Shown here piece after piece: positions 5,254-55,775 of a stretch of 55,775 nt of DNA (the first letter of the stretch is position 1; every line of letters begins with the position of its first letter). Source of the stretch: an uncultured Dehalococcoidales bacterium (GTDB lineage Bacteria; Chloroflexota; Dehalococcoidia; Dehalococcoidales; UBA2162); NCBI GenBank assembly GCA_964543495.1, contig CAZIYN010000001.1, positions 1 to 55,775 of the forward strand, read 5' to 3'. Below the pieces are notes generated by a model. That model saw only the letters and a program-made list of their open reading frames with translations, ran no database searches and was not told the origin of the DNA. A program made the translations under genes and the position numbers.

Positions 5254-5368
5254 CGAATCACCCGTCGCTACTACCGCCAACACAATATTCCTTTCGATCC
5301 TCAGCGGAATCGGTCTGGGGATAGGCTTCATGCTGGTCGACAAGGTAACAAAGAAGGCGAAGACTTAA
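5225..5368 (+). CDS. Small single-TM protein, 47 aa (below ORF-track cutoff)
   Basis: ATG 5225 to TAA 5368. Translates to MNRSRQNRISESPVATTANTIFLSILSGIGLGIGFMLVDKVTKKAKT. Confidence 0.35.
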   Translation: MNRSRQNRISESPVATTANTIFLSILSGIGLGIGFMLVDKVTKKAKT

Positions 5369-5385
5369 CCCGAAGGGAGACAACC

Positions 5386-5667
5386 ATGGCCAAGTGCGTG
5401 CCCTGCATGGCAGAATCACTCAAAGATATAATCCGTGAATTCACGGACGACCCTCATACCCTCAAGCAGGTCGACGAGATAGCCACCTGCTCCCTGGGTG
5501 AAATCATGGAGCTCTGCGGCGGCAAGACCGGTGGCAGAAAGCCCAGCGCCTACAACGAGTTTATCTCCCAGTGTATGAAGGGCAAGCCCATCAAGGGAAA
5601 GCCGTTCGGCACCGCGTCCAAATACATGAAAGAGTGCAGCGAGGAATGGAAAGCTCTCAAGCCGTAA
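5386..5667 (+). CDS. Small protein with HMG-box/YABBY-like C-terminal motif
   Basis: GAAGGGAG SD upstream. RKPSAYNEFI..(25)..ECSEEWKALK resembles PSAYNrFI...W of YABBY/HMG helices. Confidence 0.55.
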   Translation: MAKCVPCMAESLKDIIREFTDDPHTLKQVDEIATCSLGEIMELCGGKTGGRKPSAYNEFISQCMKGKPIKGKPFGTASKYMKECSEEWKALKP

Positions 5668-5852
5668 AGATCCCACAGGATATCCTGGAGAAACTCCCGG
5701 AAGACCTCGACATCCGCCTCAAAGAATACCACTGCGGCAACTGCGGGCGCTTCCTCTGCCTGCAGGCCCTTATCGAAGGGACCGTCGTCATCAAGTGCCG
5801 GCGTTGCAAGGAGTGGAACATCCTGGATGCCAGGGCCGTAGAAGAGCCTTGA
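5646..5852 (+). CDS. Com-like zinc-finger protein (Mu Com family)
   Basis: HCGNCGRFLCLQALIEGTVVIKCRRCKEWNILD fits the pattern CxxC..L..(I/V)xIKCxRCKxxN. ATG 5646 overlaps the upstream gene by 22 nt. Confidence 0.6.
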   Translation: MESSQAVKIPQDILEKLPEDLDIRLKEYHCGNCGRFLCLQALIEGTVVIKCRRCKEWNILDARAVEEP

Positions 5853-5877
5853 CAGTTCCCTCCGGTTGATGTATATA
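5849..5877 (+). promoter_or_regulatory. Consensus sigma70 promoter TTGACA-N17-TATATA(AT)
   Basis: -35 at 5849-5854 overlaps the TGA of the Com-like gene. -10 at 5872-5877. Confidence 0.7.
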
Positions 5878-5930
5878 ATACCTGAAAGGTCGACTAGACT
5901 TAGACCACTTAGGTCACCAAGGTCACTGAG

Positions 5931-5946
5931 GCCGCCGAGAGGCGGC
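5931..5946 (+). promoter_or_regulatory. GNRA-loop hairpin GCCGCC-GAGA-GGCGGC in the 5' leader
   Basis: Lies between the promoter and SD AAGGAG (5958). Preceded by GGTCAC x2 (5912, 5921) and followed by a T-rich stretch. Confidence 0.45.
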
Positions 5947-16990: not shown

Positions 16991-17012
16991 GGTATACCTC
17001 CTTTCATCTCAG

Positions 17013-17085
17013 AGCGGGAGGGGGGCTTCGAACCCCCATCCTTCTCGCTGGCAACGAGATGCTCTACCCGCTGAGCTTCTCCCGC
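17013..17085 (-). tRNA. tRNA-Gly (anticodon GCC), 73 nt, no encoded CCA
   Basis: The cloverleaf folds by hand: acceptor GCGGGAG/CTCCCGC, D arm GCTC/GAGC, anticodon arm TCTCG-TTGCCAG-CGAGA, T arm GGGGG-TTCGAAG-CCCCC. Bacterial-type. Confidence 0.9.
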
Positions 17086-17577: not shown

Positions 17578-17649
17578 TGGGGCTGCCGGGATTCGAACCC
17601 AGGCATGCTGGTTATGAGCCAGTCGTTCTAATCATTGAACTACAGCCCC
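17578..17649 (-). tRNA. tRNA-Met/Ile2 (anticodon CAT), 72 nt, no encoded CCA
   Basis: Acceptor GGGGCTG/CAGCCCC, D arm GTTC/GAAC, anticodon loop CTCATAA, T arm CTGGG-TTCGAAT-CCCGG. Not initiator-like. Confidence 0.9.
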
Positions 17650-19874: not shown

Positions 19875-20369
19875 TCAGCTCATATCGAAGCCGAGCTGCA
19901 GTAGCTCCTCCTCCTTTTTCTTTTCTTTCTTCCCTTCTCTGTCGACCTTTTCCGTCCTCTTTCTATGTTTAAGCCTCTGCTCGTAAATCCAGTACTTGAG
20001 GCGGTTTAGCATATCCATCTGATACCGGCTAAGTTCCTCGACAACGAGGTCCGCGGGAAACTTTTGAGTGTCGTCCTTGTTCTTATGATAATTCCATACT
20101 TTACCGGTGACGTAGAAATAAATCTGGGACCAGTCGTGCCCCATCGGGGCCTCAAGGCTGGCCGTGTAGAGGTAAGCGACGGCCTCGGCATCGGTGCCGG
20201 TCATGAGTCCGGACCTTACTCCCTGCATATTCATAATGAGGCGCTCCATGGTGATCGCTTCTTTCAACCAGGGAGGAAGCGTGTCACCCCAGCCACCCGG
20301 CATAACGATAATCGGGTCGGTAAAAACACCGACTATTTCTCCTATCCACTTTTCATCTTTGTTTGACAA
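19875..20369 (-). CDS. Hypothetical protein, 164 aa
   Basis: TTG start with AAGGAG SD. Lys/Glu-rich C-terminus. Confidence 0.6.
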   Translation of the reverse strand: MSNKDEKWIGEIVGVFTDPIIVMPGGWGDTLPPWLKEAITMERLIMNMQGVRSGLMTGTDAEAVAYLYTASLEAPMGHDWSQIYFYVTGKVWNYHKNKDDTQKFPADLVVEELSRYQMDMLNRLKYWIYEQRLKHRKRTEKVDREGKKEKKKEEELLQLGFDMS

Positions 20370-21604: not shown

Positions 21605-22012
21605 TTAAAAGAAACTCGGCTGCTTATCGTCAGCCTTCGGCGTTGAATTCTTGGAGCGCTTGGAAGTCGATTTTGTCGCGGCCGGCTGGGGAGCCGGCGG
21701 TTCCGGCAGGTCGGCTTTCGGATATGTCGGGCTCTCGGCCCACTGCTTTTTGGCAGTCTCGACTATTTTCGGGACTCTCTTGAGAGCTGCCGCTAGGGTG
21801 CCCTTGAAGGTCTCGTACACCGGATCGCAGCCCGGGCTCTGGACACCGACCATGTAGTTTTTGCCCCTCGAGTTGATGACGATTTTCAGCTCGTCGAAAT
21901 TCTTCGGCTTCTCCGGCTCTTTGGGCTCTTCGGTTTCTGGAGCCGGTTCTTCAGCCTCTTCCTCTTCTACCTCTTCTTCGTTCTCTTCGACAGTGGTTTC
22001 TTCATCGTCCAT
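21605..22012 (-). CDS. Protein with hyper-acidic N-terminus, 135 aa
   Basis: MDDEETTVEENEEEVEEEEAEEPAPETEE.., then a folded-looking core. Confidence 0.6.
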   Translation of the reverse strand: MDDEETTVEENEEEVEEEEAEEPAPETEEPKEPEKPKNFDELKIVINSRGKNYMVGVQSPGCDPVYETFKGTLAAALKRVPKIVETAKKQWAESPTYPKADLPEPPAPQPAATKSTSKRSKNSTPKADDKQPSFF

Positions 22013-22850
22013 GGGCGTACCTCCTTTCTCTATTATTTTTCGATGTTAGCTCTTTGACTTTTATTCCGAGCATTCGGGCGACCGTTACCGGTTCTGCCGG
22101 CACCACGTGAAGGGTACCGGCTTCCATATCGATATATGCTCCCATCCAGGCTAACTCGCCCTTCATGAGCTTCTCGACGAATTCCAGTACCAGGAATCCC
22201 ATAGCCTGGTTGATCAGCGGGCTCTGCTCGTCCGCAATGACGGCTTCGGCACAGTCCTGCTCCGGCTGCCGTGTTTCCGGCGCCGGCGACAGTAGCCCCG
22301 AAAGCTGTATGGGGGGATACGGCAGCGCCGATACCGTGCCGGCTTTCTCATCGAAAGCTCCCGCCAGATCGGGGAAATGACGGGTATTTCCTATCAGGAC
22401 TTGTCCCGATGAATGACCGTTGCCGGCGTCTATCCACCAGGTAAGCCCGCCGAGGGACTCGGCTATATCCCGCCTGGCGGCGGCGTTGTCGACGCAGCTA
22501 ATTAACAGGCTGTAAATAACGGTCGAGTGCATGCCGCCGCCCATATTCTCCTCGAACATGTCGCCCATGTAGGGGTAGACGCTATACTGGATGGGGCGCC
22601 GGTACTGCCGCGCGAGGCGCTCTGCCAAAACCTGGCTCTTGAACTTACCGATATCCTCTTCGAAGAAATGCTGCCGAAGCAGGTTATGCTGCTCGACCCT
22701 GTCATGGTCGATTAAAAGCAGCTCATACTCCTGTCGGTTTATCAGCAGCCGGCAGAGACCTTCAGCGACGAAACCACCTGTCCCACCACAGCCGACCAGA
22801 GCTATCTTTTTCTTCGCGAAATTCTGCTCTGCAGAGATCCGGAAACTCAT
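22002..22850 (-). CDS. ThiF/MoeB-type E1-like adenylyltransferase (PRTRC ThiF-like)
   Basis: KIALVGCGGTGG Rossmann motif, LIDHDRVEQHNLLRQ, SCVDNAAARRDI. AGGAGG SD. Confidence 0.85.
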   Translation of the reverse strand: MSFRISAEQNFAKKKIALVGCGGTGGFVAEGLCRLLINRQEYELLLIDHDRVEQHNLLRQHFFEEDIGKFKSQVLAERLARQYRRPIQYSVYPYMGDMFEENMGGGMHSTVIYSLLISCVDNAAARRDIAESLGGLTWWIDAGNGHSSGQVLIGNTRHFPDLAGAFDEKAGTVSALPYPPIQLSGLLSPAPETRQPEQDCAEAVIADEQSPLINQAMGFLVLEFVEKLMKGELAWMGAYIDMEAGTLHVVPAEPVTVARMLGIKVKELTSKNNRERRYAHGR

Positions 22851-23445
22851 ACTGGGTTATCACCTCCTCTTCAAGATATTCCTTGGCGCCTTCCAGGGCG
22901 CCGTCGAAGACCTCCGACCATGAAAGGTCGTCGAAATAGCCGTATACGCCGATTCGCAGCCTGATGACCGGGGTTTTCGACAGGTTTCCGACTATTCCAT
23001 AGATCTTCAGACCCGTTTCGTCTTTATCATCCGTATAGCTGAAGCCTATTTTCATCTCGCCGTGGGAGTGCATCTCCAGCACGATTTTATCGCCGGCTTC
23101 ATAAACGATGCCACCTCCGGATTTATCCTGGACCGGGACGTAGAACTTGTATCCGAAGTCTCCCTTCACGGCGACATAATGCTCTATCCGGGTGTCTGTC
23201 ATAAATACGTCGAGGGCGAGGTCGAAGAACCTCCGCGGGATGCTCCCGTAGAGGAGATTCAGCTTCTTATCGATCGGCGGCAGGCCGCGGACCTCGCAGC
23301 GAGCCACCGGTATCCTGGCTGAAATCAGCTTGTTCTCGGCCTCGATGAAGAGACCGTTGCCGGCCAGGATATAGTCGTAGAAGATACCCCTATCGCCGGC
23401 GAGTCCCTCGCCGGTGTTTATCAGATATCCCACCTGTTTTATCAT
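22762..23445 (-). CDS. JAB/JAMM metallopeptidase (PRTRC protein A-like)
   Basis: EMHSHGEMKIGFSYTD matches HxHx7Sx2D. The last 89 nt overlap the E1 gene out of frame. Confidence 0.8.
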   Translation of the reverse strand: MIKQVGYLINTGEGLAGDRGIFYDYILAGNGLFIEAENKLISARIPVARCEVRGLPPIDKKLNLLYGSIPRRFFDLALDVFMTDTRIEHYVAVKGDFGYKFYVPVQDKSGGGIVYEAGDKIVLEMHSHGEMKIGFSYTDDKDETGLKIYGIVGNLSKTPVIRLRIGVYGYFDDLSWSEVFDGALEGAKEYLEEEVITQYEFPDLCRAEFREEKDSSGRLWWDRWFRR

Positions 23446-24128
23446 GCCAGCTCCATCATCATCAGGTCGCTTATTGTCCCGTGCTTGACCAGGTCGTTCT
23501 TCGGGAACGCCTTTTTACCATCGAGGTGAGCCCAGAGGTAAGCGACATTCTTCGGAAACATCCGAGACCGGTTGTGAAGGTCGGCCGTCTCCGTGAAAAA
23601 CGACACGAAGAAGGAATGGGGGATATCGGCTGCCCTCTCCGGATACCGGTGATTGCCCGGGCAGGACCTGCCGCTGTCAAAAATATTGCAGAGCGGCGCC
23701 TTGAAGACCGGGTCCCGCTCTTTCGTCGGTTTCTTTTTCACCGCGTATACCCAGGGCGGTTTGCCCGGCGAGCATAGGAATATGAGCCCGGGCAGGGGTA
23801 TGGTGAAGCGTTTCGGCGGCTTGCCGAGTTCCTTCTGCAGGGCGAGGGTTCGAATCTTCGGTTCCGTGTAGATGGCGAAGAACGGGCCCGCTCTGGTGTT
23901 CTCCCACCAAAGGGTATTCGCCGGCAGGAGTCCGGTACCGAATGACAGCTCGTTGGCCAGTGCCTGAGCCACGTCGAAAGCCGAGACTATCCTAGTGGTC
24001 GTTGTTTCCTCGCCGAAGAAGGTTAAAACGACGGCCTGGTGATGGAAATCCAGCCTGGCTCTCAGCGGATCCGGCGGTATGTTCAGCTCCTCCGGTATCG
24101 CCCATCGATGGGCTGTCCCTATTACCAT
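23442..24128 (-). CDS. E2/UBC-like protein candidate (PRTRC protein B-like)
   Basis: APLCNIFDSGRSCPGNH resembles the UBC hPN(I/V)..G.IC active-site segment. Size and position match PRTRC-B. Confidence 0.55.
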   Translation of the reverse strand: MVIGTAHRWAIPEELNIPPDPLRARLDFHHQAVVLTFFGEETTTTRIVSAFDVAQALANELSFGTGLLPANTLWWENTRAGPFFAIYTEPKIRTLALQKELGKPPKRFTIPLPGLIFLCSPGKPPWVYAVKKKPTKERDPVFKAPLCNIFDSGRSCPGNHRYPERAADIPHSFFVSFFTETADLHNRSRMFPKNVAYLWAHLDGKKAFPKNDLVKHGTISDLMMMELA

Positions 24129-24138
24129 ATGAACCTCC

Positions 24139-24432
24139 TCAATATTCTTCCGGGAAAAGGACGGTAGTTACCGACCTGTCGGCCTCGGTGATTATCCAGA
24201 TTTTCGGGTTCAGCTCGTAGGCTGAGAAAATCCGGAGATTCCCCTCTTTGACTGCCAGGTCGTTTTCCTTCTTGTCGTCTTCCGACATATCTCCCCAGTC
24301 GCCGTTGTAATGGCGATCGAGGCTCTTATTGACGGCAATCCTGAATTGGTCGTCGTCTTCCATCCTTTCCAGGATTCCGGGCGTGACGACCAGCTGTCCG
24401 CCAGGGAATTTACTTCCTACTATTCCGACCAT
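24139..24432 (-). CDS. Conserved small plasmid/phage-type protein, 97 aa
   Basis: GDWGDMSEDDKKEN..IWIITEADRSVTTVLFPEEY recalls a family seen on mobile elements. Function unknown and family name not recalled. Confidence 0.6.
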   Translation of the reverse strand: MVGIVGSKFPGGQLVVTPGILERMEDDDQFRIAVNKSLDRHYNGDWGDMSEDDKKENDLAVKEGNLRIFSAYELNPKIWIITEADRSVTTVLFPEEY

Positions 24433-24444
24433 AATAGACCTCCT

Positions 24445-25392
24445 TTATGTCAGTACTTGGGCGTTTTCATCCAAAGGCAGAGGCATTTGCTCTTTCGGTA
24501 TTATTTCCGTTCCTTTCTCCGCGATTTTAATATCCAGGATAAACTCGAGCAGTTCCTTGAAGCGGGGCTTCAGGTCTTCCTCGAGCCATTCATAGGCTTT
24601 TGTCATCCGTTCATGGTATTCTCTTACGCGGGGCCACTGCTCGGTAAGGTTATCGACGTAGTAGCGGCTCCAGTCCACCATCTCGTAGCCGTCTTCGTAA
24701 TTTGCGTCGAGCTGCCAGCAGTCGGTGGAAGAGAATATCCAGTCGACGACCGCGTTAATCATATCGTAGTCGGTATTGTCCAGCTTCGGGTAGAGCTCGT
24801 GATATCTGAAGCCCCCTTCCGGGATGTGCGATATCAAGCCTTCCCCGACAAGGTCGGCAGCCGCTTCGAGTATCGGTATCCTGGCATCATCCTCTCCCCA
24901 TGGTGGTTCTAACAGGGCTATTATGAGGATAAAACCATCCCTCGATGTGGGCGCCTCGTGGTAGTCGGAGAAGCTGAGACCCATGAGGTTGATGGGTATG
25001 TCCCGGGTAAAGTCCCCCAGAGGAGTCTCGTCGTAGATATAGGTGAAACTGTCGGCCAGCGGGAAGTACCGGTTGGCGAAGTGGTGCATGAACATCCGTA
25101 TCTTATCGGTGTCGCTCATCTGGGCCATGATTGCCGTCTCGTGCTCCGGAAGATATTCTCTTATCAGATCGAGGAACTCTGCGACTGACTCGTAGTTGAG
25201 CAGCCGGTCGATGACGTGGGCGAGGGACGGGGGGCCGGCGATGAGCTTGTGGGCGAGCATGGCGAGCGGAAATACCGGCTCCAGCTCGTCTTCTATCACG
25301 AGAGGCTCTCCCGTCATCATCCGCTGCCTGGCAACGGCCTGCTCGTTAAGGAAACGCAGCGTCTCTAGATCATACATCGTCCTCTTCCTCAT
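24445..25392 (-). CDS. Hypothetical protein, 315 aa (positional equivalent of PRTRC protein F)
   Basis: Minus-strand tiling ORF inside the Ubl cassette. Alternative start at 25377. Confidence 0.6.
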   Translation of the reverse strand: MRKRTMYDLETLRFLNEQAVARQRMMTGEPLVIEDELEPVFPLAMLAHKLIAGPPSLAHVIDRLLNYESVAEFLDLIREYLPEHETAIMAQMSDTDKIRMFMHHFANRYFPLADSFTYIYDETPLGDFTRDIPINLMGLSFSDYHEAPTSRDGFILIIALLEPPWGEDDARIPILEAAADLVGEGLISHIPEGGFRYHELYPKLDNTDYDMINAVVDWIFSSTDCWQLDANYEDGYEMVDWSRYYVDNLTEQWPRVREYHERMTKAYEWLEEDLKPRFKELLEFILDIKIAEKGTEIIPKEQMPLPLDENAQVLT

Positions 25393-25624
25393 CTTTTGCC
25401 GCGGCCATTCTCTTCAGGGAGTCGACTGAAACCATGGTATGGCTGCCGTACATCTTGGCTTCCGCGAGGGCGCGGTTGACTTCCGGCTGGATATTCGCCA
25501 GCCCTTCGTAGTCCACCTCGCCGTCGACGGTGTATTTATTCGCCAGCTCGATAATGAGGAGGCTCTTTTCGGGCACCCTGCCCAGGGCTGTAACGACCCT
25601 GTCGATTTGTTCCGAATCTTTCAT
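25370..25624 (-). CDS. Hypothetical acidic protein, 84 aa
   Basis: TAATG-coupled to the Ubl gene. Confidence 0.6.
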   Translation of the reverse strand: MKDSEQIDRVVTALGRVPEKSLLIIELANKYTVDGEVDYEGLANIQPEVNRALAEAKMYGSHTMVSVDSLKRMAAAKDEEEDDV

Positions 25625-25815
25625 TACCCGCCCTTCGTTCCGACCCGCTTCTTGAACTCGTAGATGGTGTCTTCGCCGCGGGTACTTTCCTTGATTTCGG
25701 CGTTAGCCAGCTCGGGGAAGAATGAAGTCATGGACTGCCTGACTTCTTCCGGCGTGCTGGCGGGGTCCGGGTCCGGGAATTCTCTGCCGTCGTAGACGAA
25801 AATTCTCTTGGTCAT
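25624..25815 (-). CDS. Ubiquitin-like beta-grasp protein ending in Gly-Gly (PRTRC protein C-like)
   Basis: MTKRIFVYDGREFPDPDPASTPEEVRQSMTSFFPELANAEI..IYEFKKRVGTKGG followed directly by the stop. Matches the recalled PRTRC-C pattern R.F.Y.G..LPDP..s.eeVr..yPEl..A.i..Y.F...vGTKG. Confidence 0.7.
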   Translation of the reverse strand: MTKRIFVYDGREFPDPDPASTPEEVRQSMTSFFPELANAEIKESTRGEDTIYEFKKRVGTKGG

Positions 25816-25833: not shown

Positions 25834-26019
25834 TTAATCTTCTTTGAGGCACTCCTCGCACTTGAGGACTCTGCCGTATTTAGTCCAGTATAGAGCGGTG
25901 TTAAATTTCAAGCACCATGGCTGTTTTGCGATCGCGTCGTCCAAGTCCGGGCACTCAATGCCTTCTCCGAAGACGCTTGCGTTATAGCAGAACTCGTTCG
26001 TCGGCTTCTCTTTTCTCAC
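25834..26019 (-). CDS. Cys-rich mini-protein, 61 aa
   Basis: GTG 26019 lies 6 nt after AGGAGG. C..CPD..C..CEEC. Confidence 0.5.
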   Translation of the reverse strand: MRKEKPTNEFCYNASVFGEGIECPDLDDAIAKQPWCLKFNTALYWTKYGRVLKCEECLKED

Positions 26020-26111
26020 GATCAACCTCCTTTAAAGCCTTACATCCATTATGCTCAGTGTAATAAGGATAGCCAGGGAGAGAATGAAGGCTATCCACAG
26101 CCAGTTCTTTC

Positions 26112-30818: not shown

Positions 30819-30982
30819 AACATCACCTTCTTTACCTTCTCTTTTTGGACCCGGCCGTCGCCACCATGGTGGATATCGGCGACCTTCTTACCGTCGACCT
30901 TAATCTCGATACCCAGGCTATCAATTTCCTCCCGGGTATGGTCGTTTTTGTGTATTCTATACCATTCTTCAGAGATTAGCAA
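30797..30982 (-). CDS. Hypothetical mini-protein, 61 aa
   Basis: TTG start overlapping the integrase stop. Weak support. Confidence 0.35.
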   Translation of the reverse strand: MLISEEWYRIHKNDHTREEIDSLGIEIKVDGKKVADIHHGGDGRVQKEKVKKVMLWSSQFN

Positions 30983-31742
30983 CGCCGTTTTTCTCCGCTT
31001 TCGCCAGTTCGTCGGACAGCTCCCCGCCGGTGATGAGCAGGTACCTGGCCGTGGTATTTATATTAGCATGTCCCAGGAACTGCTGCACGAAGGCCAGAGA
31101 CATGCCCTTCCGGAGAAGGTCCACCGCCCTGGAGTGGCGGAGCATGTGGGTGCTGACTTCCGGATGCCCGACCCTTCCGCCGAGCTCTTTGAGAGTTTTA
31201 TAATAATAGGTATAGGGGCGCGGGAAAATCCTTCCTTTCTTACCTTTCGCGTATTCGGCGATGACCGGGTAGAAGTCTTTGGTTATCACCTTCAGCCGGT
31301 AGGTCCCGCCCTTGGCCAGGACCATCACGCCGGCAGGGGTGATGTCCTTCTCCTGGATGCCCATCAGCTCGTTGATGCGGCAGCCGAGGGTGAACTGGGT
31401 GAGGACGTACATCCTGTCGTCTTCGTTGTCCGCGGCATCGGCCATCTCTGCCACCGACTCGGGCGGCACGTACCGGATTATTTCATTCCGTATGGGCGTG
31501 AACAACCGGTGAGAGAACGGCCATGGCTCGCCCGGGTTCTTGTACTCGCGGTATGCCTTGATGGCCGCCTTGTGCCGGTGGAGCGAGCTGGCGCTGTAGG
31601 ATTGCAGGAACTTCAGTATCTCCTGGTCCGTGGGCTCTTTGCCCTTGATGTAGGAATTGAGCTGCCAGAGGGTCTGCTCGTAGGCCCGCTGCGTGTTCTG
31701 AGAGAGGCCGGCTATCGACTTGATAAAGTTCCGGATATCCAT
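30969..31742 (-). CDS. int: Tyrosine recombinase/integrase (XerC/D-like)
   Basis: C-terminal HMLRHSRAVDLL..LGHANINTTARYL fits the R..HxxR..Y catalytic set. ATG 31742 is coupled by TAATG to the upstream zinc-ribbon ORF. Confidence 0.9.
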   Translation of the reverse strand: MDIRNFIKSIAGLSQNTQRAYEQTLWQLNSYIKGKEPTDQEILKFLQSYSASSLHRHKAAIKAYREYKNPGEPWPFSHRLFTPIRNEIIRYVPPESVAEMADAADNEDDRMYVLTQFTLGCRINELMGIQEKDITPAGVMVLAKGGTYRLKVITKDFYPVIAEYAKGKKGRIFPRPYTYYYKTLKELGGRVGHPEVSTHMLRHSRAVDLLRKGMSLAFVQQFLGHANINTTARYLLITGGELSDELAKAEKNGVANL

Positions 31743-31897
31743 TACGCAGTACTCCCTATTTCCACCTCGGGTAAAACTTGAGTCGTTCCGCATTTCGTGC
31801 ACTCTAAACGAATCCTGTCATCTGCAGCTGTCGGCGGGAGAATAATAAACTTTTTCTTTTCTCTACATACAAAACAATAGTAATTCCGGATATACAT
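31742..31897 (-). CDS. Zinc-ribbon mini-protein, 51 aa (below cutoff), coupled to the integrase
   Basis: GAGGT SD. MYIRNYYCFVCREKK..LECTKCGTTQ. Confidence 0.5.
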   Translation of the reverse strand: MYIRNYYCFVCREKKKFIILPPTAADDRIRLECTKCGTTQVLPEVEIGSTA

Positions 31898-35876: not shown

Positions 35877-36090
35877 TGCTAGCCCCCTCTTTTATCGCGC
35901 TGACAAACCTCTCTACCCCGAATAATACCATCAGGGTGGTCATTATTATCTCGGTTATGAGGACCGGCTGGTTATCTTCGTATATCATCACCTTGCCTTT
36001 GAGCTTTATCATGATTAAGTGAAATAGAACCCACCCGCATGATAAAATAACCAGTAGCCCGCTTATGACGTTTTTCATTACACTCCCCAC
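35869..36090 (-). CDS. Two-TM membrane protein, 73 aa
   Basis: Two hydrophobic helices. Confidence 0.6.
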   Translation of the reverse strand: MGSVMKNVISGLLVILSCGWVLFHLIMIKLKGKVMIYEDNQPVLITEIIMTTLMVLFGVERFVSAIKEGASNE

Positions 36091-37637
36091 TGCTCGCCTT
36101 CATCCGGCGGCAGGCCTTCTTTACGGAATATGCCTTCCAATTCGAATACCGAGCCGGCTACAAAGTTAGGCCCTGTAACTAAGGCGAGGTCAATCCGTGT
36201 AATAGCATTTAAGCTCTCCCATCGATTGGATTGAACGACAACAATATTCTCCTGCCTCCCGTGAAAAGAAATACAATGTTTATGCCTATCTGTCTCCGCA
36301 TACGACGGAAATATAAATAAGCCTCCACCGAATTCCCCTACGCCCTCATTAGCCGCTGGGCATTTTAACCAATCTTGTATAGCAAGATTTCGGTCGGATG
36401 TCACCACGGCGCCGCTTCCATATAGCCTTTGCCGGTCGTAATTCGCAACGACGGCATCTCCATTAATAGTAATAGCGATATCATCATCAAGCGCCGCCTT
36501 ATCCGATCTCGCATAGACGTTAATCTGCAGAGCTTCGAAGTTCTGGGAAATATTATCAAACGTGACAGTAGCTGTGTCCTCGGTCAGCTCTACCCTCTCG
36601 ATTATCCGCTTCGGTACCCGGTAAAGGGAGAATAAACTGCCTGCTTTGAAGTCTGTGCCATTGTTAGGCTCGTAACTTAATTTATTTATAGGTTCCGAAT
36701 TGTCTCTTCTGCCTGAACGCAGGTCAATAACACCCGTTGGTGCGGAACTCTCATGGAAACCTGTAATATTAAACAAGTGAGGCTGATTAGCCTTTGTGTA
36801 TTGTGATACTATCGAAATTAAAGAACCATACACACTGGCAGTAGCATTTACCGCAGGACAATCACCAATAATTCGGTTATTTTGGCTAACAGAAGAAACA
36901 GCTGCGCCTACCCCTCGTAATTGCTGGTTATAATAATTTGCATTTATGCTGTCTTCATTAATATTTATATTAATTGAATCCGTAACACCAACTCGGTCAC
37001 TTCTACAATAACCCACTACCGCCAAATTGCCTTCTCCCTGGGGAATATTATCAAAGACAGGTAGTCCAGCTCCTCCTGCCAAATCCACTTCTTCTACCAG
37101 GTAGCGCTCGTCTACTACTCCCAGATGGAAGGTGCTACCAGCTTGCATATTGCCTGAATTAGCGTAAACTTCAATAGAAGTAATCGCATTTACGTTTGAC
37201 CATCTTCCAGTGGTAACTTGAACTGTGGTTTCCAATGAACCGGTTAAGGACAAAAAAGCTTTCTGGTTACTTGTATTGAAGGCGTGGGGAAAAATAAGAA
37301 TACCACCGCTATAGGCATTAGCAATGTTCGTTCCATTAAAAAGGCCACTGTGGGCATAAGAAGTTGAATCATATCTACTAGCCGCAGCCGCAGCGGCCGT
37401 TCCTCTGATTTCTTGGCTAGAGTAATTATTTCCTCCATCGCCGTTTAATCTGAAGGCTATCCATCGGTCAGCCGCATCCGAGGCCGCTGCATTAATTAGT
37501 ATTACTAGATGCCTTGAAGTAATATGCTGCCGGGCATCCCAGGCTGCCACCAGGTCATCGATATTCGAGAAAGTGACACTGGCCTGGTCAGTCTCTATCT
37601 GAATTGTCTGAAGTATCTTTACAGGTGCATTAAGCAT
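36078..37637 (-). CDS. Triple-repeat beta-rich protein, 519 aa (paralog B)
   Basis: Three modules of about 170 aa each carry VTF.NI.Q..L...R.D....NGD....NY..Q.L.G.G ... RW....AIT.I.L....G.NF.AGS.F.L.G. Confidence 0.75.
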   Translation of the reverse strand: MLNAPVKILQTIQIETDQASVTFSNIDDLVAAWDARQHITSRHLVILINAAASDAADRWIAFRLNGDGGNNYSSQEIRGTAAAAAASRYDSTSYAHSGLFNGTNIANAYSGGILIFPHAFNTSNQKAFLSLTGSLETTVQVTTGRWSNVNAITSIEVYANSGNMQAGSTFHLGVVDERYLVEEVDLAGGAGLPVFDNIPQGEGNLAVVGYCRSDRVGVTDSINININEDSINANYYNQQLRGVGAAVSSVSQNNRIIGDCPAVNATASVYGSLISIVSQYTKANQPHLFNITGFHESSAPTGVIDLRSGRRDNSEPINKLSYEPNNGTDFKAGSLFSLYRVPKRIIERVELTEDTATVTFDNISQNFEALQINVYARSDKAALDDDIAITINGDAVVANYDRQRLYGSGAVVTSDRNLAIQDWLKCPAANEGVGEFGGGLFIFPSYAETDRHKHCISFHGRQENIVVVQSNRWESLNAITRIDLALVTGPNFVAGSVFELEGIFRKEGLPPDEGEQWGV

Positions 37638-39181
37638 CAGTCTATTGCCATCCCTTCATCCGGAGGGAGCCCCTCCACGCGCAGTATTCCTTCGAGTTCA
37701 ATCACCGTGCCGGCAAGGAAGTTAGGGCCATTCAGTGGGGCTATTGAGATAGATGTTATTGCATCGGTAAGCATATAGATATCCGATACTATGAAGACAG
37801 AATTGTCCGAATTGCCGTAAAGACCGAAACAGTGTTTGTAACGGTCGGTTTCAGCATATCCCGGAAATATCAGGGTGCCGCCGTCGAACTCTCCCGCGGG
37901 ACCCGTGCCGCTTACCAGCATCCAATCCTGGTCGGCATTGGTTCTTACCGCGGTAACCACGGCGCCAAACCCGTAGAGCTCCTGGGTGCTGTAATGAGCT
38001 GCAATACCATCCCCATTTATCGTAAATCTCACCGGGTCGCTGCCGGCTGCCCGGTCGGTCTTTGCATAGACGTGGAGAATAAGAGCTTCGAAGTTCTGGG
38101 GGATATTACTGATAGTAATGGAGGCCGCGGCAGCGTCCAGCTCTACCCGCTCGATAATTCGTTTCGGCACACGGTAGAGGGAGAAAAGCGAGCCAGTTAC
38201 GAAATTCGTGCCGGCATTGGGCTGATAGACTATCTTATTAACAGGCTCATCATTGGCTCTCATTCCACTCATAGTCCGAACCTCAGCCGTAGGTCCCGTG
38301 CTTTCGTGATATCCGCTTAATGATAGAAAATGAGGATGGTTACCTTTAATATACTGAGAGTAAACCGCTACAAGGGCGCCGAATACATTGGCCGTGGCAT
38401 TGGCGCCGCTGACCATACCTATTTCCTGGTTTACAGGAGATGCCGCCGCGGTAACCGCTGCCCTGGCCGTTAACTCCTGAGCAGGATAATTGCCGGCCGT
38501 CGTATCGTCGTTAATTGAATGCAGAACCTCATCTTCGACGGCCGCACCATCTGTTCGAGCGTATCCTATTAACACCAGGTCACCCTCCCCTTGGGGAATA
38601 TTATCAAATATAGCTGTCGCTGTCGGAGTTAATTCTTCCACCAGATAACGCTCGTCAATAACACCCAGGTGGAACGTGGAGCCGGCAAGGAAATTACCGG
38701 TGGTGCCCAGCAGAAGACTGATTATCGCGTTCGCGCTTGCCCACCTCCCAGCAGTCCCCTGCACCGAATAATCAGTTCCACCTCCCAGTGTCAAAATAGC
38801 CTTATGATTGACAGTATTGAAGGCGTGGGGAATGAGAATGACACCGCCGCCAAAAGAAGTAGCGCCCCAGGACGCTGCGGGTATCATTGAGGCATTATAA
38901 GCCGGCACACCGTCATTCCTTTGAGCAGCAGCCACAGCCGCTGTCCCAGTTATTTCCTGCCGGTTGTAAGTATTGCCAGAATCACCATTGAGTAGAATAT
39001 ATAAATCCCGCTGGGAAACAGCATCCTCACCAGCTGCGTTGATAATAACGACAAGGTGTCTGCTGGTTACCCGAGCGAGAGCATCCCACTCTGCTACTAG
39101 GTCGTCTATATCTGAGAAGGTGACAGTAGCCTGAGCAGTTTCTATCTCGATGGATTGCAGTATCTTTATTGGAAGGTTCAT
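37637..39181 (-). CDS. Triple-repeat beta-rich protein, 514 aa (paralog A)
   Basis: Colinear with 36078-37637. Same three-module architecture. Confidence 0.75.
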   Translation of the reverse strand: MNLPIKILQSIEIETAQATVTFSDIDDLVAEWDALARVTSRHLVVIINAAGEDAVSQRDLYILLNGDSGNTYNRQEITGTAAVAAAQRNDGVPAYNASMIPAASWGATSFGGGVILIPHAFNTVNHKAILTLGGGTDYSVQGTAGRWASANAIISLLLGTTGNFLAGSTFHLGVIDERYLVEELTPTATAIFDNIPQGEGDLVLIGYARTDGAAVEDEVLHSINDDTTAGNYPAQELTARAAVTAAASPVNQEIGMVSGANATANVFGALVAVYSQYIKGNHPHFLSLSGYHESTGPTAEVRTMSGMRANDEPVNKIVYQPNAGTNFVTGSLFSLYRVPKRIIERVELDAAAASITISNIPQNFEALILHVYAKTDRAAGSDPVRFTINGDGIAAHYSTQELYGFGAVVTAVRTNADQDWMLVSGTGPAGEFDGGTLIFPGYAETDRYKHCFGLYGNSDNSVFIVSDIYMLTDAITSISIAPLNGPNFLAGTVIELEGILRVEGLPPDEGMAID

Positions 39182-40226: not shown

Positions 40227-40463
40227 TTATGGCTCGGGCGTATCTTCATATTCGTATTCCAGGTTGCCCGCAGCGTTTCTCCATATATTCAATATTTTAT
40301 AACCACCGCTGGGAGGGTCGCTTATCAGATGTAGCCCTTCAAGGATTTCCTTTACTCTCTCATCTCGAACGGCATCCGTGCTGAGACCTCTACCAGTATA
40401 GCTTGCTCCTCCAATATCGTTTTCTCTTCCACTTGTCATATTTTCCTCTACAAGTGATTCCAT
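40227..40463 (-). CDS. Small protein, 78 aa (paralog)
   Basis: See 39921-40214. Confidence 0.55.
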   Translation of the reverse strand: MESLVEENMTSGRENDIGGASYTGRGLSTDAVRDERVKEILEGLHLISDPPSGGYKILNIWRNAAGNLEYEYEDTPEP

Positions 40464-43036
40464 ACCTTTATGTTTCCGCCTCTCAATACACAGGCAGTAG
40501 CAACAGCTCCATTATCGATTGATAATACCCAGTAACAGGCTCCCGCAGCTGCCCCTGATGGGATATTAGCCACAGTGGTAATGCTGCCTTTATATTGGTC
40601 GTTGACATAGAAACGGACTTCTACCCCGGGTATGTGAACCATCCTGACGCGATATACATATAGAGCGGTCATAGTTGTATTGAGATTAACCGTCGATCTT
40701 CCGGCATTAAAGGATTCTCCGTAGATATCGTAATTCTGTATTTCTATACCCAGTCCATCGGCTGCCAGAACTCCTTCTCCATTTGCTTGTTTGAGCTGGA
40801 ATCTACCTCTGATATCAGCATGCGAACCAGCATCCCTTGACAGGTCAATAGCATATTCTATTCGATTATCGAAATGAACCCTGTCCCACTGACCTGCGCC
40901 ATCGAAGGACGAATTCACCATTACACCCGGACAATGGAAAAGTCCATGGTCGCCTCCGGCAGCTGCGCAGGATACCTCGGCAAACGTCGTATATAACGTG
41001 CCTCCTCCTGTTCCTCCATGATTGGCCGTCCATAGAGAATTGATAGGCACCTGGAATGACCTTCCCTGCCTTTCTAATAGCTCCATAACGAATTCCGGAG
41101 TGGCGAAGATGGGATTGTCTTCCTGGTATTCAGTTATTCCATACCTCTTTATAATCCGCGTGAGAGCCGGGTTAAGAGGTCTCTCCTCTTCCAGCCTTAC
41201 CACCGGTTGCCCGGGGAAATTGGTAACGCCATGGTCGGGATTGATAATCGTCGAGAAGAGGCCGTTTATAGTGATATTATGCAAGTTCGAATTCGTAGCG
41301 AACTGGATATCCACCAGCCCCGCGTCTACATCGAAATCCCTCAGTATCCAGCCGTCCTGTGCCCCGGCAGTTATTACCGGTGTTACTCCATCAAGCGTGA
41401 TCCGGGTTGATAGTCCAGCACCGAATATTTCCACGTCATCTATTGCCCTGAGTACTTGAGCGGTAAGGGCAAAAGTGCCATACCCGAGTTCAATCTTTCC
41501 TCCGCCGACTGACAAAGCATTCAGGGCATGCTGGATCTGCATGCCGGAATGAACCTGGAAGTGTCCCGGGTCTTTCCTCAAAACAACGTTTGCGTTTGCC
41601 AGGTTGACGGTACTGCCGGCAGTGGTTTCATCCGAGTCGCCATCAAGCTCTATTAATCCGGAAGCGGCTACCTCGAATAATGAGACTTGCTGGCCAGCCC
41701 ACCTGTTTCCACCTCCGGAAATAGTGGCTGCTGCGATATTAACATACATCATCACGCCCTGGTCACAGGTGAAATCGTTTCCGATAAGGATACCATCCGC
41801 AGCGGCTGTATCAACATGTATGAGATGGAATCCGGCGGCGCCACTGGCAATATTACCGTAGTTATGCTTAAGGCTGAAATTTCCACCACCGGTTATATCC
41901 CATACCTGATGAGCAAAAGCGCCAGGCGTAATGATTTCTATTCTTACTCTTTCGAAGGTAAAAGAAGCCGCAGCTCCGCCGTCAGTGATGAGGGTTCGAG
42001 CCTGCGACGGGCTGTCGAGCTGGATGGTCACGTTTTCGATTTCCTGGTAACCAGCTGCTAAGGTGATTATATCATCGTCATCAAACTGGTAGAGCCGGAC
42101 AGCATTCCCCGGCCCTATACCTTTCAAATGAACATAGGTATTCATGGTGATGTTTTCGTTATAGATTCCAGGATGTATAAGGACAGTATAAGGATTCGCC
42201 GCCGCGGGTACCGGAGCATCGGCAGCCGCCATGTCAATAGCGTCCTGTATCCACATCCCTTCGTAAACTTCGTATTGCTGTTTCCCGTTTTTAAGGCAGA
42301 CAGTACCGCCCACGATATTTTCAGCCGCCTCGGTAGTTACCGAATCATTGTTGAAAACGATGGTTCCATTGGTAACGCTGAACATACGACCAGTGCCGGC
42401 CCATCGATTTCCGCCTCCGGTTATGGTGCTTGCCACCAGGCAGAGCACATGGGTAGAGTTGGCATTCTGGAAGGTGAAATTATTGTTTATCAGGTGGATA
42501 GTTGCAGGGTTATTCTGGCTGGTAACGGTATAAGATCCTCCGGTACCTCCGATATTGTGATAGCAATTCTCTACCCGGAGGTCCGTCCCATTTCCTTCAA
42601 TAACAAAAACATTGATTACTACTGCGCCCGGTGTGGTCACCTCGAAAATCACATTTCGAAGGACAGTACTGACTGCAGCAGCACCATCCCGGACATGTGC
42701 ACGCCCCCCTGCCGGGGTGCCCATACGCAGAGTAACATTCTCAACTTCACCATCGTCAATAGTGAGAATATTATTATCGTTCTGGTATATGACAACAGAT
42801 CCGGAAGGGCCCATACCCTTCAGGTGAACGTTAGCTGCCATGGTGATAGTTTCGTCGTAAATGCCAGGCCATATCTGCACTGTATAAGGAGCCGCGGCTG
42901 ATGGTGCCGGCACCGCCTGCGTAGCGCACCAGTTAATTGCCGCCTGAATCGTTATAAATTCCGACAGACCGCCCGGGGCAATGCCTACCCGCACAGTTCG
43001 CGGCATTCTTTTCAGTTTAGCGTCTATCTCTGCCAT
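40448..43036 (-). CDS. Spike/depolymerase-like protein with two beta-helix domains, 862 aa
   Basis: The internal duplication PYTVQIWPGIYDETITMAANVHLKGMGP / PYTVLIHPGIYNENITMNTYVHLKGIGP is typical of pectate-lyase-fold entry segments. Confidence 0.55.
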   Translation of the reverse strand: MAEIDAKLKRMPRTVRVGIAPGGLSEFITIQAAINWCATQAVPAPSAAAPYTVQIWPGIYDETITMAANVHLKGMGPSGSVVIYQNDNNILTIDDGEVENVTLRMGTPAGGRAHVRDGAAAVSTVLRNVIFEVTTPGAVVINVFVIEGNGTDLRVENCYHNIGGTGGSYTVTSQNNPATIHLINNNFTFQNANSTHVLCLVASTITGGGNRWAGTGRMFSVTNGTIVFNNDSVTTEAAENIVGGTVCLKNGKQQYEVYEGMWIQDAIDMAAADAPVPAAANPYTVLIHPGIYNENITMNTYVHLKGIGPGNAVRLYQFDDDDIITLAAGYQEIENVTIQLDSPSQARTLITDGGAAASFTFERVRIEIITPGAFAHQVWDITGGGNFSLKHNYGNIASGAAGFHLIHVDTAAADGILIGNDFTCDQGVMMYVNIAAATISGGGNRWAGQQVSLFEVAASGLIELDGDSDETTAGSTVNLANANVVLRKDPGHFQVHSGMQIQHALNALSVGGGKIELGYGTFALTAQVLRAIDDVEIFGAGLSTRITLDGVTPVITAGAQDGWILRDFDVDAGLVDIQFATNSNLHNITINGLFSTIINPDHGVTNFPGQPVVRLEEERPLNPALTRIIKRYGITEYQEDNPIFATPEFVMELLERQGRSFQVPINSLWTANHGGTGGGTLYTTFAEVSCAAAGGDHGLFHCPGVMVNSSFDGAGQWDRVHFDNRIEYAIDLSRDAGSHADIRGRFQLKQANGEGVLAADGLGIEIQNYDIYGESFNAGRSTVNLNTTMTALYVYRVRMVHIPGVEVRFYVNDQYKGSITTVANIPSGAAAGACYWVLSIDNGAVATACVLRGGNIKVWNHL

Positions 43037-44261: not shown

Positions 44262-44855
44262 TTACCCCATTATTATCGGCAGTAAATCACCATAGAGGTC
44301 GGACCGTGACCCTTCTCCGGATAGCGTCGTAAAAGTGACGTCCTGACCGTAGCCCTCTCCGTACTTATTTCTGGCCACGGCCCTGTAATGGTAGCTCTTC
44401 CCTCCGGAGAGCGGACCTACAATATCATAAAATGTGGACCCGGTGACAGCACCACTAACCCACTGTGTTTCATTTCCGTAATTCGAGGTCCCGCCATACT
44501 GGAATTTCGTCTGGCAGCCACCTCCCCTGTCATTAACTATCTGCCCGTTGAGCTGTGCATCATGCTCCCCTATCACGGAAGCATCAAGAGTTATAACATC
44601 GGGGGGCTCTCCGGGAGTCACGAAGCTCATAATGGCGCCATAGGTAGTCCCCACGGCATTCCGCGCAATAGCCATAAAATAAACTGTGACATTACCGCTG
44701 GGCACTAGCACAGTCTCGGAAAAGGCCATGCCGGTGTAGAAGGGCGTTTGCCACGCAGTATAATAAGTCGGCCCGCCGACGGTCCACGCGAAACATACAT
44801 CGCAGGGAAGCCCACCATCATCTGTCAGTGTCCCGTTTAATTTTGCAGTTGCCAT
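44262..44855 (-). CDS. Protein with two FN3-like domains, 197 aa
   Basis: Two occurrences of Y..(A/R)(I/V)ARN..G..YG....F(V/T)T. Confidence 0.5.
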   Translation of the reverse strand: MATAKLNGTLTDDGGLPCDVCFAWTVGGPTYYTAWQTPFYTGMAFSETVLVPSGNVTVYFMAIARNAVGTTYGAIMSFVTPGEPPDVITLDASVIGEHDAQLNGQIVNDRGGGCQTKFQYGGTSNYGNETQWVSGAVTGSTFYDIVGPLSGGKSYHYRAVARNKYGEGYGQDVTFTTLSGEGSRSDLYGDLLPIIMG

Positions 44856-55704: not shown

Positions 55705-55726
55705 GGGGGGTCGCCGGCGACCCCCC
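55705..55726 (-). terminator. Rho-independent terminator GGGGGGTCGCC/GGCGACCCCCC plus U6
   Basis: 22-nt perfect palindrome followed on the minus strand by GTTTTTT. The right arm lies in the terminal repeat. Confidence 0.8.
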
Positions 55727-55775
55727 TTACTGATTTTAGTAATATCAGAAATATTTCATAATGTCAAGTCGAAGA
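55721..55775. repeat. Terminal direct repeat copy 2
   Basis: Identical to 1-55. Confidence 0.95.
55739..55767 (-). promoter_or_regulatory. Candidate promoter TTGACA-N17-TATTAC just upstream of the terminator (also present at 19-47)
   Basis: Read on the minus strand. The -10 lacks the final T. The predicted start is about 6 nt before the hairpin. Confidence 0.4.

Follow-up and report, generated by a model that had tools for sequence, protein, structure and literature searches.

We analysed a 55,775-nt stretch of DNA (the window; contig CAZIYN010000001.1 from an uncultured Dehalococcoidales bacterium) that carries on its minus strand a compact gene cassette related to PRTRC, the computationally defined ParB-Related, ThiF-Related Cassette. 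Our reading, which we hold to be reasonably probable, is that the cassette is a catalytically complete-looking PRTRC-type operon for the conjugation and deconjugation of a ubiquitin-like protein (Ubl), tied to a replication or establishment module through an adaptor that binds the sliding clamp. A preliminary description of the sequence had proposed that a Ubl, an E2-like protein, a JAMM peptidase (JAB) and a ThiF-type E1 lie in one minus-strand block, and all four were found where it had placed them, with Pfam or NCBIfam matches for each. Its comparison to PRTRC held as well, as PRTRC models were the top NCBIfam matches of the Ubl, the E2-like protein, JAB and the E1. The same applies to the gene order and the tight co-directional coupling that it had pointed out, an order that recurs in ∼150 related loci. 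This coupling, together with the family matches of the four parts, is far beyond chance. Gene identities, motifs, conservation and synteny could be read directly from the sequence and form the observational basis of what follows.

The Ubl scored above the gathering score of Pfam Prok_Ub (PF14454, 1.2e-14) and above the NCBIfam cutoff of PRTRC_C (TIGR03738, 53.6 bits versus 45.95). Similarly, the E2-like protein exceeded the gathering score of Pfam Prok-E2_D (PF14460, 5.7e-18), while remaining below the cutoff of PRTRC_B (TIGR03737, 3e-15, 56.2 bits versus 131.45). JAB matched PRTRC_A below its cutoff (TIGR03735, 5.9e-12, 45.5 bits versus 101.8) and Pfam Prok-JAB weakly (0.0023). The top match of the E1 was PRTRC_ThiF, again below the cutoff (TIGR03736, 8.9e-30, 103.8 bits versus 144.75), and Pfam ThiF (PF00899) was matched at 8.7e-17. 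Hidden Markov models (HMMs) of the window clade matched the B, A and ThiF proteins of Ralstonia phage Dina at 1e-38 to 1e-68, so that homology to PRTRC is clear, whereas equivalog status is not. Since B, A and ThiF each fit their PRTRC family best yet fall short of the curated cutoffs, we consider the cassette a divergent sister group rather than a textbook PRTRC.

Globally, the cassette is a recurrent unit. Open reading frames (ORFs) were called in 160 related loci bearing an E1 homologue and searched with HMMs built iteratively from the proteins of the window; the E2-like gene was present in 153 of these loci, JAB in 145 and the Ubl in 130, in the same order. Two arrangements dominated, Ubl-p315-E2-JAB-E1 and Ubl-p84-p315-E2-JAB-E1-p135(-DnaN), where p84, p315 and p135 denote additional proteins of 84, 315 and 135 aa in the window. 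The same block also occurs on a contig of 94 kb whose E1 is 62% identical.

The preliminary description had taken a terminal '-GG' as the signature of the Ubl, which the alignment does not bear out. In an alignment of 32 diverse Ubls, with the PRTRC_C of canonical plasmid loci among them, the conserved end is G59-T-K61-G62, in which G62 of G-x-K-G is the only invariant residue; conservation reaches at least 90% for K61, G59 and F54, and G63 of the window protein is a one-residue, non-conserved tail. Most close relatives terminate at ...GTKG. Others carry tails of 2–10 residues, as exemplified by GTKGAFPNARS in Dehalococcoidia chromosomes, or C-terminal domains of 60–130 aa, and some consist of two or five tandem Ubl repeats, each with a terminal GTKG, among others on IMG/VR contigs of 117–181 kb. 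The PRTRC_C proteins of Dina and Xanthomonas run on for ∼60 aa past G-R/T-K-G. Furthermore, an HMM built from standalone p84 only (Ubl-p84 fusions make iterated Ubl and p84 HMMs cross-match) detected p84 as the C-terminal extension of the Ubl in 13 Chloroflexota loci (E 1e-21 to 1e-29), where Ubl-GTKG-p84 is a single polypeptide (L100, L101, L103-L105, L112, L114, L115, L124, L132, L141, L156 and L159). The fusion of the two proteins implies proteolytic release and, considering the tails, p84 fusions and poly-Ubl genes of the relatives together, endoproteolytic maturation after G-x-K-G looks general. Judging from these sequences, cleavage is presumably performed by the co-encoded JAMM peptidase. 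p84 itself matched nothing in Pfam, NCBIfam or PHROGs, and is a candidate for a family-specific accessory subunit. A search of the PDB with the Ubl profile returned no ubiquitin-like match. The di-Ubl and penta-Ubl genes (IMG/VR loci L054-L059, about 5354-5936; L078, 5598-6704) are located upstream of homologues of E2, JAB and E1. A length is recorded for five of their contigs, which span 42–181 kb, three of them exceeding 100 kb, and the genes look like polyubiquitin-style precursors in large phages.

In the E2-like protein, we compared 151 sequences and found P145, N148, C156 and G158 to be 96–99% conserved, with C156 reaching 99%. C147, the cysteine of the 'PLCN' segment that had been put forward as the E2 cysteine, is not conserved, and this assignment has to be moved to the near-invariant C156. 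In the HPN...G..C active site of the UBC fold, the spacing is N-x4-G-x2-C, with the oxyanion asparagine eight residues before the cysteine. The window protein has N148-x4-G153-x2-C156 as its candidate active site, a spacing equal to that of UBC proteins, with C156 as the candidate catalytic cysteine. An AlphaFold2 model of moderate quality (mean predicted local distance difference test score, pLDDT, 73.4) has the order helix, strands, Cys loop and three helices, a predicted arrangement compatible with a UBC core. A profile search of the PDB yielded no significant match for this protein, and a literature search for Prok-E2_D or PF14460 found nothing relevant.

The JAB protein contains the motif HSHGEMKIGFSYTD, corresponding to HxHx7Sx2D, and in addition E88. 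E88, H126, S127, H128, S136 and D139 are 96–98% conserved among 142 sequences and constitute a complete JAMM motif, and we predict that JAB both processes the Ubl precursor and acts as a deconjugase. The E1 is a single adenylation domain of 282 aa. Invariant among 36 sequences were GCGGTG, DxDRVExHNLxRQ, C119-V-D121 and D199-C200-A201, so that the motifs for nucleotide binding and adenylation, with the nucleotide loop and the Arg-finger motif among them, show no variation. Its nearest solved relative in the PDB was UBA5 (8e-14), a protein-conjugating E1, followed by MccB, TcdA, SAE2, ThiF (2e-6) and BubCD (4.5e-6). MoeB and ThiF have a crossover-loop cysteine, and by analogy C200 is a candidate for the catalytic cysteine of the window E1. 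The full 282-aa ORF aligns to its homologues end to end. In the public annotation, the gene call of this E1 begins at an internal Met and, at 208 aa, is missing the GCGGTGG nucleotide loop, so that automated annotation would miss the Rossmann motif.

The proposed link to replication comes from p135, in which an acidic N-terminus precedes a small conserved domain, followed by a linker rich in Pro, Lys and Ala and by the C-terminal peptide KQPSFF. It was found in 76 of the 160 loci and in 73 of the 80 Chloroflexota loci, and adjoins the cassette in 73 of 74 loci (30 directly after the E1, 13 directly before the Ubl and 30 within ∼0.5 kb downstream). The C-termini of the family include GQLSLFG, GQLTLFG, [QE]TLRLF, AQPKFF, QPSFF, QQNFF and QERMF; the consensus for binding to the bacterial beta clamp is QL[SD]LF and variants thereof. 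A motif of this type was present in the last nine residues of 60 out of 74 unique family members versus 22 of 3,601 other genes from the same loci, an enrichment of >100-fold over background. Based on its sequence, p135 is a candidate adaptor, or substrate, with a beta-clamp-binding-type motif. A sliding-clamp gene lies next to it in the window. The encoded DnaN-like protein matched TIGR00663 (2.1e-24), PHROG 947 'DNA polymerase processivity factor' (2.5e-45) and Pfam DNA_pol3_beta_2 and _3. A DnaN-like gene was detected in 38 of the 160 loci; of the 16 loci with p135 directly after the E1, 13 have DnaN after p135. The 164-aa protein encoded just downstream of DnaN ends in ...LLQLGFDMS, and in 5 of 12 members of its family the C-terminal peptide resembles the clamp motif; this protein may be another client of the clamp within the module.

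We also asked whether p135 corresponds to PRTRC_E. In the canonical PRTRC_E the layout is alike: a small domain at the N-terminus is joined by an acidic/Ala/Pro linker to a C-terminus that is short and hydrophobic (such as QTSFF, QTSLF, QTNLF, SFELF, LLSLLS or GLDLPI). There was no NCBIfam match, BLASTP and hhalign (which covered the Dina protein and its family) gave E values of 3.6 and 0.5, respectively, and iterated HMMs did not cross-match. By sequence comparison, p135 is therefore an architectural analogue of PRTRC_E with no demonstrable homology.

Other neighbours are of a similar kind. The Chloroflexota loci are accompanied by SNF2 helicases, proteins with SSB-like C-termini, DnaN and a DnaA_N/MarR protein. 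ParB is encoded directly before the Ubl in 27 loci, mostly from IMG/VR and including the closest viral relatives L003-L005, and a subset of the ParB-bearing loci has a large terminase (TerL, 11 loci) or portal gene (9 loci) within 10 kb. Among eight canonical plasmid PRTRC loci that we inspected, dnaN was annotated within 10 kb in three, two of which are related Pseudomonas megaplasmids; an SNF2 helicase was upstream in two, a PAPS-reductase-family gene downstream in two, and ssb was present in one. SNF2-type helicases also recur upstream, both in chromosomal loci of Dehalococcoidia and on plasmids from Paraburkholderia and Cupriavidus. The PAPS-reductase-family gene seen near canonical plasmid PRTRC has a counterpart in the window, 20 kb from the cassette; further examples of the recurring PAPS-reductase-family and SNF2-type helicase neighbours are found at L176 (14236-16038) and L178 (11120-13297). 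As the preliminary description had stated, ParB is missing: none of the 105 window ORFs has a ParB domain, and an HMM built from the ParB proteins of related loci was likewise without a match in the window. That description had also suggested counter-defence, virion tagging or replication control as possible roles. The genomic context points to a replication or establishment module rather than to counter-defence or virion tagging. Overall, its observation is confirmed and its interpretation partly supported.

Comparison with known systems places the cassette beside PRTRC (TIGR03734-03742), whose C (Ubl), B (E2-like), A (JAMM) and ThiF proteins are homologous to those of the window. Both have the co-directional order C-(F position)-B-A-ThiF, are carried by mobile elements, and have a Ubl that ends in x-K-G, often with a cleavable extension. 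DnaN, SNF2 helicase and PAPS-reductase-family neighbours are shared as well, and the closest IMG/VR relatives have ParB upstream. Unlike PRTRC, the window lacks ParB and its B, A and ThiF proteins remain below the curated cutoffs; p135 and p315, in the E and F positions, have no detectable similarity to PRTRC_E and PRTRC_F, and p84 and p97 (97 aa) are extra. p135 is also located after the E1 instead of before the Ubl and carries an explicit QxxFF/QLSLF clamp-type motif, and the host range of the window clade is Chloroflexota. Phage-borne PRTRC is already known. In Dina it is annotated as E-C-F-B-A-ThiF, and the ∼9 kb of flanking sequence covered contain no annotated ParB; the Dina ThiF matches 352 plasmid records. 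For Burkholderia gladioli prophages, PRTRC has been discussed by authors who describe its function as unstudied (PMC13366799). In agreement with the preliminary description, we found no established function for PRTRC in the literature (PMC13366799, PMC3318190, PMC11601596). In a 2025 preprint (10.64898/2025.12.11.693706), PRTRC is spelled out as 'Pilus Retraction/Contraction', suggesting that the ubiquitin-like nature of the cassette is largely unfamiliar to annotators.

As of 2024, type II CBASS (short for cyclic oligonucleotide-based antiphage signalling system), Bil and Bub were the only bacterial Ubl conjugation families to have been characterised (PMC11601596). Bil (types I and II) has separate Ubl, E2, JAB and E1 proteins and a presumed E1-to-E2-to-lysine chemistry (PMC11601596, 10.1101/2023.09.04.556158), as does the window cassette. 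However, BilD comprises an inactive and an active adenylation domain in tandem, together with a mobile Cys domain, whereas the window E1 is single-domain, and Bil is a host defence locus, whereas the window cassette is part of a mobile-element replication module. Type II CBASS shares the ThiF-type adenylation domain, the E2 chemistry and the reversal by a JAB protein (PMC10097602). In its Cap2, E1 and E2 are fused, and the protein that becomes conjugated is the CD-NTase itself; in contrast, the window Ubl is free-standing, the E2 is a separate protein of another Pfam family (Prok-E2_D), and no CD-NTase or effector family was among the window matches. Bub (6E/DUF6527) is again a mobile-element Ubl operon with an E1, an E2-like protein and a peptidase, and its E1, BubCD, is distantly similar to ours (4.5e-6), but it uses Ser/Tyr oxyester intermediates, an E2 without Cys and the serine protease BubE (PMC11601596). 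The window E2 cysteine is 99% conserved and there is no DUF6527 protein. By these sequence comparisons, the cassette is not Bil, type II CBASS, Bub or a sulfur-carrier pathway. As an analogy only, eukaryotic ubiquitylation and SUMOylation of PCNA also involve Ubl machinery, which in the window appears to be clamp-linked through a short clamp-binding peptide; neither the clamps (bacterial beta versus PCNA) nor any of the ligases are homologous.

From the sequence, we infer a working model in which each chemical step, the cysteine assignments, the clamp binding and the biological role are predictions. The JAMM peptidase would expose or trim the Ubl C-terminus at G-x-K-G. The ThiF-type E1 would then adenylate the terminal glycine with ATP and probably hold the Ubl as a C200 thioester, from which it would move to C156 of the E2-like protein, with N148 as the oxyanion-type Asn. 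Finally, the Ubl would be attached to a target lysine, an attachment that the JAMM peptidase could also reverse. p315 and p84 would serve as family-specific accessory subunits, either as scaffold or for specificity. p135 might dock on the beta sliding clamp via its C-terminal QxxFF/QLSLF-type motif and would thereby place the system, or its substrate, at the replication or establishment machinery of the element. Such a placement fits the adjacent DnaN in the window and the ParB, SSB, DnaN and SNF2 helicase genes beside its relatives. A broader version of this model is that a disordered adaptor, p135 here and PRTRC_E elsewhere, tethers PRTRC Ubl machinery to the beta clamp, or is the substrate there, allowing the elements to control their own or host replication. 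As a general rule for PRTRC, we find this rather doubtful. In the versions that encode ParB, a similar part could fall to this protein, which is a CTP-dependent DNA clamp in its own right.

Several observations weigh against our reading. p135 was present in none of the 78 loci of the IMG/VR group, so the clamp link is not universal, and an adjacent DnaN is limited to roughly one third of the Chloroflexota loci. The clamp motif of p135 is a short linear motif, whose binding to the clamp is a prediction. As to the enzymes, Foldseek of the E2 model against the PDB returned no E2, UBC or RWD fold (best E 0.31; at a mean pLDDT of 73.4 the model is moderate), and its top matches, PCNA and FABP with a template modelling score of about 0.1, were noise. 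An hhalign comparison with UBE2D2 was not significant. For the E1, only the N-terminal half aligns to solved E1s, which affects the placement of C200, and phmmer of the C-terminal half against the PDB found only designed proteins. The sub-threshold scores of the B, A and ThiF proteins count on the same side. Furthermore, the literature offers no biochemistry for any PRTRC system. Lastly, the large ORFs of 862, 519, 514 and 431 aa have no capsid, portal or TerL match in PHROGs or Pfam.

We therefore weighed these findings against other roles for the cassette. One is prophage-carried defence or superinfection exclusion, in which the Ubl would be conjugated, as in Bil, to proteins of competing phages and block their assembly. 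The same parts serve Bil and type II CBASS in antiviral defence (10.1101/2023.09.04.556158, PMC10097602, PMC11601596), defence genes are common on mobile elements, and in a PADLOC search the Rossmann region of the E1 matched CBASS E1-E2 models (1e-13) and, weakly, BilD (8e-6). Nevertheless, the E2, JAB and accessory proteins had no PADLOC match, BilA, BilB and BilC were not matched, and the Ubl had a single weak match (E 0.0016) to a 'Type III-C specific' model. With 282 aa and a single domain, the E1 is neither a tandem-domain BilD nor an E1-E2 fusion. The cassette also sits in a co-directional replication-type module (DnaN and p135 here; ParB and SSB in relatives) and not in a defence island, and it recurs as a near-core block in many phage contigs and plasmids, all of which makes a defence role quite unlikely. 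Counter-defence or host takeover, where the element tags host immune or replisome proteins upon entry, overlaps our reading and departs from it only in the origin of the proteins that are modified. The neighbours of canonical PRTRC include ParB, ssb, SNF2 helicase and DUF932 genes, which are early or establishment-type genes of conjugative elements, and a clamp-motif adaptor could target clamp-bound proteins of the host. No known anti-defence domain is present, however, and a literature search pairing leading-region anti-defence genes with ThiF found nothing relevant; we consider it unlikely.

An addiction or stability module has been the subject of speculation for mobile Ubl operons (Iyer et al. 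2006, PMC1779556), and the strict association with mobile elements and the pairing of opposed conjugating (E1/E2) and deconjugating (JAB) activities would allow for a mechanism by which loss of the element becomes harmful. We regard this as very improbable, given that no toxin-like component is evident and that an operon of six to eight genes is far more elaborate than known addiction systems. Biosynthetic sulfur transfer of the ThiS/MoaD-ThiF/MoeB type, without protein conjugation, is suggested by E1 matches to ThiF and MoeB models (4e-14 to 1e-4). These matches score at most half as high as PRTRC_ThiF, which is the top family, and UBA5 ranks ahead of ThiF among the solved relatives, so that the grouping of the E1 with sulfur-carrier enzymes, which the preliminary description had named as a result that would speak against it, was not observed. 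Dedicated E2-like and JAMM genes accompany the E1 in most loci, and no rhodanese, ThiG, ThiH, MoaE, cysteine-desulfurase, thiamine or molybdopterin genes were among the Pfam matches of the window. A sulfur-carrier role can hardly be correct.

The positions of the cassette genes and of the other features discussed here are summarised in Table 1. According to our ORF calls, the window is gene-dense and nearly all of its genes are on the minus strand. Neighbouring cassette genes overlap by 1–89 nt, the largest overlap being that of the E1 and JAB genes (89 nt), or are 10–12 nt apart; only the gap before DnaN is longer, at 64 nt. The hairpin upstream of the cassette is the strongest terminator-like site between 19.5 and 29 kb, and no site of comparable strength was found on the minus strand inside the cassette. 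It likely marks the 5′ boundary of the transcription unit. A promoter scan of the region performed no better than on shuffled sequence. The Cys-rich ORF with CxxC-type pairs 18 nt upstream of the Ubl was not found in any other locus.

Table 1. Cassette genes and other features of the window (positions on the 55,775-nt stretch).
Feature	Position	Strand	Remarks
Ubl, PRTRC_C / Prok_Ub family	25815-25624	minus	63 aa, ends RVGTKGG
p84, small protein	25624-25370	minus	84 aa; start codon overlaps Ubl stop codon
p315, all-helical accessory protein, PRTRC_F position	25392-24445	minus	315 aa
p97, accessory insertion between p315 and E2, non-core	24432-24139	minus	97 aa
E2-like protein, Prok-E2_D / PRTRC_B-like	24128-23442	minus	228 aa, contains PLCNIFDSGRSCPG
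JAB, JAMM/MPN+ metallopeptidase, PRTRC_A-like	23445-22762	minus	227 aa, HSHGEMKIGFSYTD
E1, ThiF-type adenylating enzyme, PRTRC_ThiF-like	22850-22002	minus	282 aa, VGCGGTGG and DHDRVEQHNLLRQ
p135	22012-21605	minus	135 aa, C-terminal KQPSFF; overlaps E1 gene end by 11 nt
DnaN-like beta sliding clamp	21540-20425	minus	371 aa; 64 nt downstream of p135
Terminator-like hairpin upstream of cassette	27320-27296	minus	10-bp stem, 6 G-C pairs, then T-run
Protein downstream of DnaN	19875-20369	minus	164 aa
Cys-rich ORF upstream of Ubl	25834-26025	minus	63 aa
PAPS-reductase-family gene	1033-1866	minus	
tRNA-Gly(GCC)	17012-17085	minus	
tRNA-Met(CAT)	17578-17649	minus	
Tyrosine integrase	30969-31802		
Large-ORF region	36078-39181, 40448-43036, 44855-45940, 51355-52650	minus	one ORF Asn-rich

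Two of the accessory proteins remain to be described. p315 was present in 109 of the 160 loci, and its family has 614 representatives in 1.84 billion proteins. The AlphaFold2 model is all alpha (mean pLDDT 85.9), and Foldseek found no match for it in the PDB (best E 2.8) or BFVD (best E 0.78); Pfam, NCBIfam and PHROGs gave no domain. The preliminary description had tentatively equated p315 with PRTRC_F, an assignment of which only the position survives. hhalign against the Dina protein and PRTRC_F families gave E values of 0.35–0.5, iterated HMMs did not cross-match, and neither p315 nor any of 46 diverse or remote relatives (0/46) matched an NCBIfam model. On this evidence, p315 is a positional analogue of PRTRC_F only, with undetectable homology. 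P, L, F, G and W make up most of its conserved residues, and a Cys/His pattern is absent; being structural in type, these residues suggest that p315 is not an enzyme but a scaffold or a specificity factor. p97, which ends in ...IWIITEADRSVTTVLFPEEY, was found in only 6 of the 160 loci, in relatives also at other positions (e.g. L091, 5368-5652). It had no match in Pfam, NCBIfam or PHROGs and looks like a mobile accessory gene.

Positions 1-55 of the window are identical to 55721-55775, which closes the contig to a circle of 55,720 bp and makes it a complete element. In line with the mobile element proposed by the preliminary description, this circular contig of 55.7 kb encodes a tyrosine integrase and two tRNAs. 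It also carries HNH endonucleases, a weak small-terminase match, DUF5131, DUF1643, a PAPS reductase, a KaiC/AAA_25 helicase-like ATPase, and LVIVD and InlB-B-repeat proteins. Apart from the clamp, PHROGs recognised almost nothing in the cassette region. Virion genes were searched for with phmmer against the PDB and tblastn against phages, which gave nothing, with TerL and portal HMMs from related phage loci, which had no match in the window, and with IMG/VR scans, which gave only weak matches to the N-rich 519-aa protein. As no capsid, portal or large terminase was recognised, we refer to a phage-like mobile element and not to a proven virus. Based on its sequence, it is best described as a phage-like integrative or circular mobile element with relatives in Chloroflexota, and it probably belongs to bacteria of this phylum. 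The large ORFs of 519, 514 and 862 aa, which lack a recognisable family, lie beside the LVIVD and InlB-B-repeat proteins, and this group may be a structural or adhesin module.

Homologues of the E1 are widespread. A large protein collection contained 1,827 at E <1e-5, mostly from subsurface, groundwater and sediment metagenomes, and 483 loci were confirmed when species-representative genomes were scanned with a profile. Of these 483, the best 80 are overwhelmingly from Chloroflexota (Dehalococcoidia and Anaerolineae) and include closed chromosomes, some with two copies. In IMG/VR, scanning with the single E1 protein returned nothing, and an alignment-based query was needed; the profile scan confirmed 100 viral contigs with an E1 identity of 25–53%. 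The cassette had no blastn match among deposited phages.

What is new here is a PRTRC relative without ParB, with accessory proteins of its own, and a large Chloroflexota and phage clade that was previously unremarked. Type II CBASS, like Bil, is a cellular antiviral defence and the role of Bub is open, all three having been worked out biochemically. PRTRC-type cassettes are biased in the opposite direction, towards plasmids, integrative and conjugative elements and phages, and exist in hundreds to thousands of copies. The catalytic residues of the window clade are preserved, and its Ubl is in many cases a cleavable precursor or a poly-Ubl, like eukaryotic ubiquitin. An adaptor-like protein with a beta-clamp-type motif beside a clamp gene provides a concrete handle on function. 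If the clamp link is false, a divergent copy of a catalogued cassette remains. If it is true, clamp-tethered PRTRC would represent, in bacteria and viruses, a counterpart to PCNA ubiquitylation and give a new view of mobile elements that use Ubl chemistry at the replisome.

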